The notes beneath the pieces were generated by a model. That model ran no database searches and was not told the origin of the DNA. It saw only the letters and a list, made by a program, of their open reading frames with translations. 9,877 bases of DNA from a virus (Duplodnaviria > Heunggongvirae > Uroviricota > Caudoviricetes). The stretch spans positions 1 through 9,877 of the IMG/VR virus record IMGVR_UViG_2531839661_000013; one strand, 5' to 3'. Numbering within the stretch: position 1 is the stretch's first letter; every line of letters starts with the position of its first letter. The position numbers were made by a program, and so were the translations under genes. Positions 7,262 through 9,342 of the stretch are shown piece by piece.

Positions 7262-7456
7262 ATGCCAGAGAACAACACCAGAAAGCCGGATAAAAGTGCC
7301 ACGGTACACATAGACGCCGGAACTATGGAGAAGATCGAACGCTATCAGCAGTTCATCAAAGATAATCACCCGGGTATGCCAGTGCCCACGAAAGGACAAA
7401 TCACACGCAGCGCGGTTGAATACTGGTACAGGGCAACGTTAGGAGCCTGGCTATGA
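7262..7456 (+). CDS. hypothetical small protein (64 aa; alternative start 7229), possibly RHH-like
   Basis: RBS GGAGG (7250-7254) 7 nt before ATG 7262. Its stop overlaps the ATG of the capsid gene (ATGA at 7453-7456). The strand-helix-helix-like segment is only suggestive. Confidence 0.5.
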   Translation: MPENNTRKPDKSATVHIDAGTMEKIERYQQFIKDNHPGMPVPTKGQITRSAVEYWYRATLGAWL

Positions 7457-9342
7457 AAACATGGTTTTCCATTAAGGCTATGGCAGATGTTGTACATGTG
7501 CGCATTTATGACGAGATCGGCGGGTACGGTGTAAAGGCATCGGCACTTACTGACGAGATCAACGCGTGCGGTAATGTGTCTGAAATCCATCTTCGCATCC
7601 ATTCACCTGGTGGCGACATCTTTGAAGGGCTGGCTATCTATAACGCCCTGAAAAATCATCCGGCAAAGAAAATTGTACACATTGAAGGCATGGCGGCTTC
7701 TATGGCCTCGTTTATTGCCATGTGTGGCGATCACATCGTTATGCCTGAAAACGCGATGATGATGATACATGCCCCCCGTGGTGTTACTGCCGGAGTGTCG
7801 GGCGACGTTCGCCGCTTTGCTGACCTGATGGACAAGCTGGGCGACACGATGGCGGAAACCTACGCCGGAAGAACGGGCAGGAGCAAACAGGAAATCACCG
7901 CCATGATGGAGGCGGAAACCTGGATGGATGGCAATGAGTGTAAGGCTAACGGCTTCGCAGATGAGGTTATAGCCGCGATTACAGCAATGGCCCGAATTGA
8001 ATCAAAACGAATCGGAGATTTTTCAAATATGCCGGAAAAAATTAAAAGCATGATCAGCCAGAAAACTACCAGTGGCGAACAGGAACGACTTAACGGCATC
8101 CGTGAATTGTTTGGCACGTTCAACGGAAGATATAACGACCTGGCTATAAGTTGTCTTGCTGATTCAGAATGTAGCGTTGAGAATGCACGCGAACGCCTTT
8201 TACTCGCTATGGGTAAAGAATCAACGCCAACAAACAAAACCACCCCCGCAAATCTTTACTACGCGTACACGGATAACGGCAACATAACCGGCGATGCAAT
8301 GCGCCAGGGGCTTAATGCGCGTCTTGGTCACGAACGGGCCGAACGCGGTAATCCTTACGCCATGATGAGCCTTTTCGATATGGCACAGGCATCATTAACC
8401 CATCGTGGTATAAGCACGGGCAGCTACGGCACACGCTCGCAGATAGTAAACGCGGCATTCACCCACAGCAGCAGCGATTTTACCGATATTCTTGCTGGTG
8501 GCGCTGAAAAATCAGTGCTTGCAGGCTGGGAGCACAGCGGCGAAACATTCCGCCAGTGGACGAAAAAAGGTTCCCTTTCAAACTTCCGGGAAGCCCGCCG
8601 CGTTGGTATGAATGGCTTCTCAACGTTAAACAAAGTGCCGGAAGGGGCAGAATATAAATACATCACCACCAGCGATCGCGGTGAACCCATCGCGCTGGCT
8701 ACTTACGGGAATATTTTCAGCATTACCCGCCAGGCGATAATCAATGATGACCTTGATCAGTTATCAACGGTGCCAATGGCTATGGGCCGTGCTGCATCAA
8801 GAACGGTGGGAAATCTGGTTAATCTGGTGCTTACAGGCAACGTAAAACTTTCTGACGGAATAGCGCTGTTTGACAAAAAACACAGCAACCTGATTGAAGC
8901 AGGACTGACAACACCGGGACTTAGTGCAGCACGTCACCTGATGCGCACACAGAAGGACAAAAATGGCGAAGTGCTGAATATTGCGCCTAAATTCCTTTTA
9001 GTTCCGGCAGCACTGGAAGATCGCGCGTTGCAGATGATTAACTCAACCGCACCTTTCGGGGCTGATAAAAACAGCGGGATCTTTAACCCGTATCACAAGC
9101 TACTTGATATCATCGTCGATCCCCGCCTTGATGATATCAGCGAAAAACAATGGTACATGCTTTCCGCACAGGGAACGGACACAATCGAGGTGGCTTATCT
9201 TGATGGCAATGACGAGCCTTACCTTGAACAGCAGGAAGGTTTTATCGTTGACGGCGTGGCCTGGAAAGTCCGTATTGATGCAGGTGTGGCAGCTCTGGAT
9301 TATCGCGGTATGGTCAAATCAGGCGGGACAGATTCACTCTGA
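7453..9342 (+). CDS. fused prohead protease (ClpP/S14-like) and HK97-fold major capsid protein
   Basis: 629 aa. N-terminal ~180 aa has ClpP-family motifs: IHSPGGD, catalytic-serine context EGMAASMASF, and MMMIHAP. The C-terminal ~350 aa has the composition and length of an HK97-type major capsid protein. RBS AGGAG 7 nt upstream and a strong terminator follows the stop. Confidence 0.85.
   Translation: MKTWFSIKAMADVVHVRIYDEIGGYGVKASALTDEINACGNVSEIHLRIHSPGGDIFEGLAIYNALKNHPAKKIVHIEGMAASMASFIAMCGDHIVMPENAMMMIHAPRGVTAGVSGDVRRFADLMDKLGDTMAETYAGRTGRSKQEITAMMEAETWMDGNECKANGFADEVIAAITAMARIESKRIGDFSNMPEKIKSMISQKTTSGEQERLNGIRELFGTFNGRYNDLAISCLADSECSVENARERLLLAMGKESTPTNKTTPANLYYAYTDNGNITGDAMRQGLNARLGHERAERGNPYAMMSLFDMAQASLTHRGISTGSYGTRSQIVNAAFTHSSSDFTDILAGGAEKSVLAGWEHSGETFRQWTKKGSLSNFREARRVGMNGFSTLNKVPEGAEYKYITTSDRGEPIALATYGNIFSITRQAIINDDLDQLSTVPMAMGRAASRTVGNLVNLVLTGNVKLSDGIALFDKKHSNLIEAGLTTPGLSAARHLMRTQKDKNGEVLNIAPKFLLVPAALEDRALQMINSTAPFGADKNSGIFNPYHKLLDIIVDPRLDDISEKQWYMLSAQGTDTIEVAYLDGNDEPYLEQQEGFIVDGVAWKVRIDAGVAALDYRGMVKSGGTDSL

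Follow-up and report, generated by a model that had tools for sequence, protein, structure and literature searches.

A 'tripartite capsid gene' of lambdoid phages is known from Gifsy-2 (Effantin et al. 2010, Virology 402:355, as cited by others). Phage satellites can also carry capsid genes, and capsid-protein homologues are reported from SaPIbov5 (Ccm) and PmCI172, two satellites that make small capsids. Of 29 reference Gram-negative PICIs, 21 carry a capsid gene, and PICIs with a CLP_protease late gene have already been noted (Mageeney et al.). In SatelliteFinder a lone 'capsid morphogenesis' gene is one of the five core components of PICIs, while portal, connector and adaptor are forbidden for ordinary members. 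[quoted passage not shown]

The window, a stretch of 9,877 nt, holds most of an element of about 10.5 kb that is a classical cos-type Gram-negative PICI of the EcCICFT073 family from E. coli. The region 7262-9342 is part of the late (packaging) module of this island, and it encodes a single chain in which a protease, a scaffold-like segment and a capsid protein are fused. Both the gene family and the island layout have been described before, and the fusion is already correctly annotated. What merits discussion is how this locus differs from the described systems, and what a satellite might do with a head gene that has no partners of its own.

A classical PICI without packaging genes

The following features identify the island outside the region under study:

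1-1242, int, site-specific integrase at the left end (Pfam)
1739-1945, HTH/AlpA-like ORF (weak match, E 0.003, below the Pfam cutoff)
4673-6082, RepA/AAA_25 helicase (Pfam)
6077-6284, ori iterons AAAAGTGAG (repeat analysis)
9596..9877, + strand, 93-aa ORF, last island gene and conserved PICI backbone gene (phrog_1561)

The interval from the helicase to the fusion contains only the ori iterons, a 91-aa ORF, PerC, a cos-like repeat and a small ORF. In two complete E. coli genomes (L001 and L002) whose islands are 98-99% identical, the island adjoins chromosomal yejO directly, with a tRNA-Pro attR remnant about 375 bp beyond the window end and the tRNA-Pro 3' end repeated about 10.5 kb downstream. 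This att site and the PICI backbone confirm that the element is a satellite, as the first-pass annotation had proposed. That annotation had also remarked on the absence of portal, terminase and connector genes within the window, and the absence extends past 9877, since both genomes run into yejO; no portal, connector, terminase, tail or lysis gene is found in the window or in the flanks of these two genomes. As to a head cluster immediately downstream, the claim that none follows stands for this island but not for its relatives with a 91% identical fusion, which are inserted in terL of a helper prophage and have such a cluster directly downstream; there, however, the cluster belongs to the helper prophage and not to the island.

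The island has the hallmarks of a PICI, namely an integrase with an att site, a regulator (the weak AlpA match) and a replication module, small size and cos-like sites. Of the genes that distinguish cf-PICIs, none is present, be it an own portal, a head-tail adaptor or connector, HNH, TerS or TerL. Because it lacks the cf-PICI packaging genes and has helper-type cos sites instead, the island is not a cf-PICI. The earlier suggestion that this is a capsid-forming satellite whose genes are unusually ordered has therefore to be given up, as portal, connector and terminase are missing and the layout is the usual one of proteobacterial PICIs; the alternative offered with it, a minimal capsid-like shell module, may hold. 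This island also has no Rpp, TerS-like, decoration or cement protein gene, and in the related satB family a DUF1441 (TerS-like) gene is the only one among HNH and terminase genes.

EcCICFT073 (Fillol-Salom 2018, 2019) shares with this island int, an AlpA-type regulator, Icd-like and DUF4222 genes, PerC and the 93-aa last gene, as well as a late module with two cos sites, a capsid homologue placed after a small ORF, the lack of a terminase and, judging for our island from its sequence, dependence on a cos helper. In EcCICFT073 the capsid protein is of the lambda E type and is accompanied by a gpD-type decoration protein, by RppA and by inverted copies of lambda cosN, whereas this island has the protease-scaffold-capsid fusion and direct cos copies of the Stx2_95 and 1720a-02 types. 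The replication protein differs too, being a RepA/AAA_25 helicase here and a D5-type primase in EcCICFT073. The 93-aa ORF falls in phrog_1561, a family without assigned function. Its counterparts at the end of EcCICFT073 and of the satB islands share 90% and 74% identity with it, respectively, and searches of Pfam, NCBIfam, PDB and PADLOC brought no match. It was considered as an Rpp and rejected, since RppA is a protein of 144 aa (c1503) encoded elsewhere in EcCICFT073.

With cf-PICIs such as EcCIEDL933 the island has in common the PICI backbone and its own capsid protein and head protease, but cf-PICIs take only tails from the helper, and portal, head-tail connectors, HNH, TerS and TerL are their own. 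SaPIbov5 is likewise a satellite of cos phages with a homologue of the helper HK97-fold capsid protein as its morphogenesis gene. Ccm, however, is unrelated in sequence and host and has no protease domain, and it is for SaPIbov5 that small capsids have been demonstrated. Finally, in the manner of helper-embedded PICIs (Mageeney et al.), relatives with a fusion 91% or 63% identical to this one are integrated in terL of prophages with a Gifsy-2-type head; compared with these relatives the present island has a tRNA-Pro type integrase, a full-length 93-aa last gene and a chromosomal location.

A three-part head gene under purifying selection

The region 7262-9342 divides as follows:

7262..7456, + strand, small satellite-specific ORF, 64 aa (GGAGG; ATGA overlap; phrog_4934)
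7453..7992, + strand, ClpP-like (S14) prohead protease domain, residues 1-180 (Pfam, NCBIfam, phmmer; Ser83, His106, Glu155)
7993..8412, + strand, helical scaffold-like segment and probable maturation-cleavage linker, residues 181-320 (AlphaFold2 model, alignments)
8413..9342, + strand, HK97-fold major capsid protein (Phage_capsid_4 / Mu gpT-like), residues 321-629 and stop codon (Pfam, profile, model, Foldseek)

The ORF list of the window gives the fusion as a plus-strand ORF of 629 aa at 7453-9342, and in this one chain a helical scaffold-like segment stands between a ClpP-like protease and an HK97-fold capsid protein. The chain belongs to NCBIfam NF045540 ('ClpP-like prohead protease/major capsid protein fusion protein'), the Gifsy-2-type tripartite head gene, which it matches with 891.1 bits against a curated cutoff of 475. 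The protease half is recognised by Pfam CLP_protease (residues 42-174, E 5.6e-33), by NCBIfam Clp_rel_HeadMat (202 bits for the N-terminal half, cutoff 120) and by phmmer against solved ClpP structures (E 3e-15). In the phmmer alignment Ser83 (AAS83M) and His106 (MIH) fall on ClpP catalytic residues and Glu155 takes the position of the Asp; these three predicted catalytic residues are invariant across the aligned satellite and phage copies. The capsid half matches Pfam Phage_capsid_4 (residues 331-623, E 8e-55) and, as a profile, solved capsid proteins of the Mu-gpT type (E 1.6e-12).

An AlphaFold2 model of residues 181-629, built on 45 sequences, reached a pLDDT of 81.4 and a pTM of 0.69, while a model of the full-length fusion on a 10-sequence alignment (pLDDT 39.7) was discarded. 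The model shows residues 181-320 as helices, confidence being low between residues 258 and 275, and the probable site of maturation cleavage lies within this linker. When this model was searched against the PDB with Foldseek, 334 matches were obtained at E<=1e-3, and the 50 listed are all capsid or encapsulin shells; they include the capsids of HK97, D3, T1, P4 and SaPI1, with a probability of 1.00 for the first four. The proposal made from the sequence at the outset, a ClpP-like protease joined through a scaffold-like linker to an HK97-type capsid protein, is thus corroborated in each of its parts by the searches and by the model. An internal start near Met193, which would yield a scaffold-capsid product, was considered, but the GGAG found 11 nt upstream here is not conserved in the phage versions.

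The first-pass annotation had also coupled the fusion to a small upstream protein, and rightly so, as the stop of the small ORF overlaps the start of the fusion in an ATGA at 7453-7456; from this arrangement the 64-aa ORF and the fusion are read as translationally coupled. The ATG at 7262, with GGAGG 8 nt on its 5' side, gives 64 aa; translation from 7229 instead would yield 75 aa. The small protein matches phrog_4934, a family without assigned function, and has no match in Pfam (even at E<=10), NCBIfam, PDB or PADLOC. With HMMER its relatives amount to only seven clusters among 1.8 billion representative proteins, none of them annotated. Weak homologues (27-38%) also precede the capsid gene in satB islands and in EcCICFT073, and none is found in helper phages. 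Neither the 64-aa nor the 93-aa ORF resembles helper head or neck genes. A role of the small ORFs as helper neck or gpW-like proteins was set aside when tblastn against five helper or phage loci returned nothing, and a ribbon-helix-helix fold of the 64-aa protein, an impression from its sequence pattern, found no support in the searches.

Gifsy-2, mEp460, cdtI, Stx2 phages and LESphi3 each have a single head gene, preceded by the portal gene and followed by that of the cement protein, and over its full length the fusion shares 48-52% identity with it. The satellite copy shares with the Gifsy-2-type gene its three-part architecture, its family and the predicted catalytic residues, but it has no portal gene upstream and no cement protein gene downstream, its N-terminus and linker are shorter, it belongs to a separate clade and it is preceded by the satellite-specific small ORF. 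Indeed, the satellite fusions comprise two families with 64% identity between them, which group together and away from the phage copies, and both lack the phage N-terminal extension (17-30 aa) and a Pro/Ala/Thr-rich linker of about 40 aa. In the tree the fusion does not track the helper subtype. Its identity to helper proteins is no more than 52-60%, and satellite fusions are about 54% identical even to the head gene of the helper in which they are embedded. The gene is intact in 143 of the 144 complete genomes that carry it and truncated in one. Its dN/dS is 0.09 at a dS of 0.54 (protease 0.12, scaffold 0.10, capsid 0.07), so all three domains are under strong purifying selection, and the gene is functional rather than decaying.

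Two cos-like sites and candidate helpers

The module is flanked by two cos-like repeats and contains terminator-like hairpins:

6823..6917, + strand, cos-like repeat copy A, core CCTGAACACGGGGCGGAGGGGCGCGGAAAAAGGCGC (95-bp direct repeat, phage cos homology)
7025..7070, strand not assigned, GC-rich hairpins with flanking T/A runs, terminator-like on both strands (inverted repeat I9, sequence)
9349..9370, + strand, hairpin GGCGG-CACCAG-CCGCC and a T6 run, resembling a terminator at the end of the capsid operon (read from sequence)
9360..9454, + strand, cos-like repeat copy B, core CCTGAACACGGGGCGGGCGGCGCGGAAAAAAGCGC (direct repeat, phage cos homology)

The two 95-bp copies are about 92% identical, and their putative cosN cores differ by one indel and one substitution. 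Homology to phage cos extends beyond the repeats, to about 6990 for copy A and about 9557 for copy B. Positions 6829-6990 are 94% identical to the cos region 5' of terS in phages 1720a-02 and CP-1639, and positions 9366-9557 are 87% identical to the corresponding region in the Stx2_95, Stx2d and VT1-Sakai phages; on the cosB side these helper-type matches of the two copies are reciprocal. The 16-mer core of copy B recurs 194 nt 5' of terS in L004. The NF045540-type head gene is carried by Gifsy-2, mEp460, cdtI, CP-1639, 1720a-02 and long-tailed Stx phages. Since the two copies resemble the cos of separate subgroups among the phages that have this head gene, they point to the helpers, which on these similarities would be lambdoid phages with a Gifsy-2-type head gene. 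If the cos sites are copied from helper subgroups, a helper terminase would cut and package concatemers of the island. Every satellite locus read has the small ORF and then the fusion between two cos sites, and a second satellite family has an mEp460-type cos core and is embedded in mEp460-type prophages. EcCICFT073 likewise pairs a cosN of lambda with head genes of the lambda E and D types.

Genomes with the island also show a third cos-like place. The hairpins at 7025..7070 stand between cos copy A and the small ORF and include a terminator-like site on the minus strand (7043-7025). The hairpin at 9349..9370 overlaps the left edge of copy B and was missed by a consensus terminator scan. A scan upstream of the small ORF and fusion found no sigma-70 promoter; AlpA, PerC and the Q protein of a helper are candidate activators of the module. 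Rfam found no RNA family in the window.

Possible roles of the fusion

On balance we lean towards a reading in which the late module of a classical PICI combines a head gene of satellite lineage with packaging by the helper and with shells that are either its own or redirected. The fusion probably builds or redirects shells for satellite DNA. Upon induction of a helper, the small ORF and the fusion would be expressed, and the fusion would assemble on helper portals, either as capsomers of its own or mixed with helper subunits, and mature by cleaving off its own protease and scaffold parts, which would leave a product of about 33-38 kDa. Such shells would take up satellite DNA, or the assembly of helper heads would be diverted or redirected, possibly to another capsid size, with the helper supplying terminase, portal, cement protein, connectors and tails. 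Under this mechanism the island would stand between an ordinary PICI and a cf-PICI. That all three activities of assembly and maturation are kept argues for real shell formation over mere poisoning of the helper.

Several observations speak against this reading. Deletion of the capsid or the decoration homologue of EcCICFT073 left interference with lambda unrelieved, and EcCICFT073 is packaged in phage-sized heads (Fillol-Salom 2018, 2019). PICI capsid genes have been reported to be dispensable for helper-assisted transfer (Mageeney et al.). Moreover, four copies of the island (42 kb) would fill a helper head, the helper genomes being 44-47 kb, so that a special capsid is not needed. The island has no cement protein gene either, and at an identity of 52-60% a fit with helper portal and cement protein is uncertain.

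It is possible, if doubtful, that the tripartite gene alone suffices to form satellite shells on helper portals, perhaps with a smaller T number, and that helper terminase would fill them through either of two cos sites tuned to two helper subgroups. The shortened internal protease-scaffold part would fit a smaller interior. If true, the island could be called a 'shell-only' capsid-forming satellite, functionally halfway from classical PICIs, with their use of helper capsids, to cf-PICIs, with their own full head and packaging set.

A rather unlikely alternative is that the fusion serves interference only, as a dominant-negative decoy that co-assembles with helper head proteins or cleaves them prematurely, such that a lower helper yield protects the host population and no shells for satellite DNA are formed. 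Classical PICIs typically act on their helpers from the module downstream of ori (Fillol-Salom 2018, 2019), the fusion has diverged (52-60%) from every helper copy, and, as the island has no Rpp or TerS-like gene, the fusion and the small ORF are the sole candidates for interference besides the 93-aa ORF. A poison, however, needs no complete self-maturing pathway, and here purifying selection acts on all domains and the predicted catalytic residues are invariant. The island must itself enter heads built in the same cell, and the capsid homologue of EcCICFT073 was not an interference factor.

We consider it improbable that the fusion is captured cargo, a spare late gene that complements defective helper prophages and has no satellite-specific role. 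Captured late genes have been proposed to be spare copies, with capsid the commonest among them, and the reported dispensability of PICI capsid genes for transfer would agree with this (Mageeney et al.), as would the location of relatives in helper terL genes. Yet these embedded relatives break terL and not the head gene, so the fusion is no spare for a broken gene. Nor do the satellite copies look like recent captures, forming as they do a clade of their own with common deletions, and the conservation of the cassette, in which the fusion is coupled to a satellite-specific small ORF and framed by cos sites, speaks for an integrated role in the satellite.

It is very improbable that the gene is a remnant, the decaying leftover of a cf-PICI or prophage after loss of portal, terminase and connectors, as a single head gene without partners and the truncated copy in 1 of 144 genomes might suggest. 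The att ends are intact, the same layout of about 10.5 kb recurs in two diverged families at several integration sites, the dN/dS of 0.09 and the 143 intact copies do not fit decay, and the reported phylogenetic separation of PICI and cf-PICI capsid genes tells against such an origin. The capsid protein and protease of HK97 (gp4/gp5) can assemble without a portal. Least probable of all is a phage-independent, encapsulin-like nanocompartment of the cell with no link to DNA packaging: encapsulins do occur among the Foldseek matches and portal-free assembly as in HK97 would allow it, but those matches are 9-16% identical and reflect only the common HK97 fold, no cargo gene is present, the fusion gene is flanked on either side by a cos site in an integrative satellite with a PICI backbone, and at 891 bits it belongs to a phage head-gene family.

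Capsid genes are carried by most proteobacterial PICIs and treated as a core component, although published tests found the capsid homologue of EcCICFT073 unnecessary for interference and PICI capsid genes are reported to be dispensable for transfer. The present island offers a convenient test case, since it combines one self-contained gene under strong purifying selection with the absence of Rpp and TerS and with candidate helpers that include Stx-converting phages of STEC. With it one could address whether a satellite capsid is found in transducing particles, whether capsid size changes and whether the yield of Stx phage is affected.

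The island and its class

The window's island is a classical cos-type phage satellite (PICI). It carries only one head gene, a conserved and satellite-specific form of the tripartite gene of its helper phages. The window holds a nearly complete island with the following features:

1-1242, integrase
1739-1945, AlpA-like HTH protein
2328-3224, minus strand, small genes
4673-6082, RepA/AAA_25 helicase
6077-6284, AAAAGTGAG iterons at the expected ori position
6267-6542, 91-aa ORF
6532-6804, PerC
7262-9342, capsid module
9596-9877, 93-aa ORF

Two complete E. coli genomes, L001 and L002, carry islands that match the window at 98-99% identity, and in both of them 219 bp separate the integrase from a tRNA-Pro gene. 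The tRNA 3' end is copied about 375 bp past the window end (TTAAACTACTCTCGTGGACCAAA versus TTCAAATCCTCTCGTGCCGACCAAA), and the island therefore measures about 10.5 kb. No portal, terminase, connector, tail or lysis gene belonging to the island was found in the window or its flanks in these two genomes, so that the absence of the first three, remarked on in the first-pass annotation, holds past 9877 as well; directly downstream, chromosomal yejO follows the 93-aa ORF in both, rather than the full head cluster that would have refuted the annotation. The annotation's further proposal of a capsid-forming satellite with an unusual gene order does not stand. Capsid-forming PICIs are defined by additionally carrying portal, connectors, HNH, TerS and TerL, all of which the island lacks, and it is therefore not one of them. 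The literature regards a lone capsid gene as usual in such islands: the five core components of PICIs include 'capsid morphogenesis', which is commoner in Proteobacteria, 21 of the 29 reference Gram-negative PICIs have a capsid gene, and PICIs with a CLP_protease late gene have already been catalogued. The island shares its backbone with the model Gram-negative PICI, EcCICFT073: stretches of the two are 86-96% identical in DNA sequence, both have Icd-like, DUF4222 and PerC genes, and their last genes (the 93-aa ORF in the window) are 90% identical. The two differ in the late module. Besides a small ORF, that of EcCICFT073 encodes a capsid protein of the lambda E type, a decoration protein of the gpD type, a hypothetical protein and RppA; that of the window's island consists of a small ORF and the fusion.

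Several repeats that contain AAAAGTGAG, some direct and some inverted (6077-6284), come right after the RepA-type helicase gene, the position at which PICI replication origins have been reported. In the minus-strand regulatory region, a 75-nt direct repeat (2260-2334 and 2833-2907; 83% identity, 573 bp apart) contains a GCGCCG...CGGCGC hairpin and goes together with two paralogues of the YlcI/YnfO family (2328-2501 and 2901-3224); in L001 the related island has a single unit only. Just past the window end, directly 3' of the 93-aa gene, L002 carries five GTGAC motifs spaced by about 10-11 bp (15059-15120; AGTGACATACCGTGACGGAGAGTGACAACCAGTGACACGACGTGACA), and TTTAGTTATACG repeats are present near both island ends; both are possible candidates for excisionase or integrase arm sites. 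The PerC-family regulator (E 1.2e-43) lies just upstream of the first cos-like site; silencing of LEE expression has been reported for a PerC-like gene from a different E. coli PICI, and many carriers of the window's island are LEE-positive STEC.

A tripartite head gene under selection

The capsid module marked at 7262-9342 in the first pass is exactly two coupled genes, because the likeliest start of the small ORF is the ATG at 7262 (GGAGG 8 nt upstream, 64 aa; the equivalent start is called by PGAP in a near-identical island) and its stop codon shares an ATGA at 7453-7456 with the start codon of the 629-codon fusion ORF (7453-9342, plus strand). Profile and structure searches of both halves agree with the earlier reading of a ClpP-like protease and an HK97-fold capsid protein in one 629-aa chain. 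Residues 42-174 match Pfam CLP_protease (E 5.6e-33), the protease half scores 202 bits against NCBIfam 'head maturation protease, ClpP-related' (cutoff 120), and ClpP proteins score best among solved structures (E 3e-15). Alignment with ClpP identifies Ser83 as the catalytic serine and His106 as the histidine, with Glu155 at the position of the ClpP aspartate, and all three are invariant among the aligned satellite and phage relatives. Residues 331-623 match Pfam Phage_capsid_4 (E 8e-55), and a profile search with the capsid half matched solved Mu-gpT-type capsid proteins (E 1.6e-12). An AlphaFold2 model of the full-length fusion from a shallow alignment had a pLDDT of 39.7, and a model of residues 181-629 built with 45 diverse relatives (pLDDT 81.4, pTM 0.69) was used instead; Foldseek gave 334 PDB matches at E<=1e-3, of which the best 50 are capsid or encapsulin shell structures, including the HK97, D3, T1, P4 and SaPI1 capsids. 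Residues 181-320, modelled as helical with a low-confidence linker at 258-275, look like a scaffold (delta-domain-like) segment. The whole chain scores 891 bits (cutoff 475) against NCBIfam NF045540, 'ClpP-like prohead protease/major capsid protein fusion protein', and the exact window protein is in RefSeq, correctly, under that name.

All three parts are under selection. The fusion is intact in 143 of 144 genomes, the exception being a deletion in one embedded copy, and dN/dS between the window and a 91% relative is 0.09 at dS 0.54 (protease 0.12, scaffold 0.10, capsid 0.07), as low as or lower than the 0.15-0.18 between phage copies.

Lineage, cos-like sites and likely helpers

A well-known group of lambdoid phages has this tripartite gene as its only head gene: Gifsy-2 (for which the term 'tripartite capsid gene' has been used), mEp460, mEp213, mEp043, cdtI, CP-1639, 1720a-02, the long-tailed Stx1 and Stx2 phages and Pseudomonas LESphi3-like phages. 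It lies there 3' of the portal gene and 5' of the cement protein gene, and the window's fusion is 48-52% identical to the phage versions over its full length. A large sister family, seen in metagenome relatives (P0121-P0240), has an HK97-type (Peptidase_S78) protease in place of the ClpP-like one, joined to the same Phage_capsid_4 capsid domain. The protease-scaffold-capsid fusion therefore occurs with two unrelated proteases.

Of 5,426 complete E. coli genomes, 144 carry the window's family at 90% identity or more, and many of the carriers are STEC. A second satellite family (fusion 62-64% identical) occurs in PICIs that have a D5-type primase and a DUF1441 TerS-like gene. A simple distance tree groups the two families with each other, away from the phage proteins. 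Both lack the N-terminal extension that overlaps the portal gene in the phages, as well as the phage Pro/Ala/Thr-rich linker of about 40 aa that follows the protease. The fusion of a satellite embedded in a helper is just about 54% identical to that helper's own protein. By these comparisons, the satellite fusion genes are not recent captures.

Relatives with a fusion 91% or 63% identical are integrated within the large-terminase gene of lambdoid prophages. In these loci a complete head cluster does follow the satellite; it belongs to the helper, in the order portal, own fusion of 675-680 aa, cement protein, then neck and tail genes. Loci L010-L016 and L021 are such satellites in prophages with their own fusion-type head gene, and the helper terL stays split until satellite excision, as described for helper-embedded PICIs. 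The 93-aa gene is truncated in embedded forms and full length in the window; given this and the tRNA-Pro type integrase, the window's island is therefore of the chromosomal type. In the second family (L005-L009, 12171-12656) a 161-aa DUF1441 protein follows the fusion, DUF1441 also being the Pfam family of the helper small terminase (L010, 823-1317). Since no DUF1441 gene was found in the window's island, the two families may recruit terminase differently.

A 95-bp direct repeat of about 92% identity (copy A, 6823-6917; copy B, 9360-9454) brackets the capsid module. In its core, CCTGAACACGGGGCGG(G)CGGCGCGGAAAAA, the repeat is similar to the lambda cosN region (ACGGGGCGGCGACCTCGCGG), and phage Stx2_95 has the same 16-mer 194 nt ahead of terS. 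The copies diverge on the right-hand (cosB) side, where their phage matches are reciprocal:

6829-6990, extended match of copy A, 94% to the cos region of 1720a-02 and CP-1639; against Stx2_95 it ends at the shared core
9366-9557, extended match of copy B, 87% to the cos region of Stx2_95, Stx2d and VT1-Sakai; against 1720a-02 it ends at the shared core

All cos-matched phages carry a fusion-type head gene, and every satellite locus read shows the order cos, small ORF, fusion, cos. The second family has an mEp460-type cos core and is embedded in prophages with a head gene 99% identical to that of mEp460, and EcCICFT073, with lambda-type head genes, has two lambda cosN copies, from which it is packaged, as experiments have shown. 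Capsid gene and cos therefore match in type, which points to the helper. In the window's island both sites may be cut and may serve two helper groups; the putative cosN cores of copies A and B differ by one indel and one substitution. In two island carriers (NZ_CP146507.1 and NZ_CP028110.1), copy B as query hits three places per chromosome, two of them accounted for by the island; the extra one may be a resident helper prophage.

Possible roles of the fusion

Judged from the sequence, concatemers of the island would be packaged by helper terminase through the mimicked cos sites, with portal, cement, neck and tail supplied by the helper. The likeliest role of the fusion protein would be to assemble on helper portals and mature through self-cleavage, the resulting shells carrying satellite DNA or diverting helper head assembly. 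We rate this role of the fusion, proposed from sequence, as about evenly poised between right and wrong. The EcCICFT073 capsid homologue is dispensable for interference with lambda, EcCICFT073 is packaged in full-sized heads, and PICI capsid genes are reported not to be required for helper-assisted transfer; moreover, a normal helper head would hold four island copies (42 kb). These points speak against an assembly role, which we nevertheless prefer to the satellite fusion being a pure poison, because selection maintains the full assembly-and-maturation pathway, catalytic residues included. In addition, the evolution of the satellite protein does not follow helper subtype, a pattern better suited to homotypic capsomers than to obligatory mixing. 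The protein's shorter internal part is compatible with a smaller shell without being evidence for one, and a 'shell-only' capsid-forming satellite strikes us as rather unlikely.

Both the protein family and the island family have been described before, as has the habit of such islands of carrying a lone capsid gene. The window's island would be a clean system for studying the function of the fusion.
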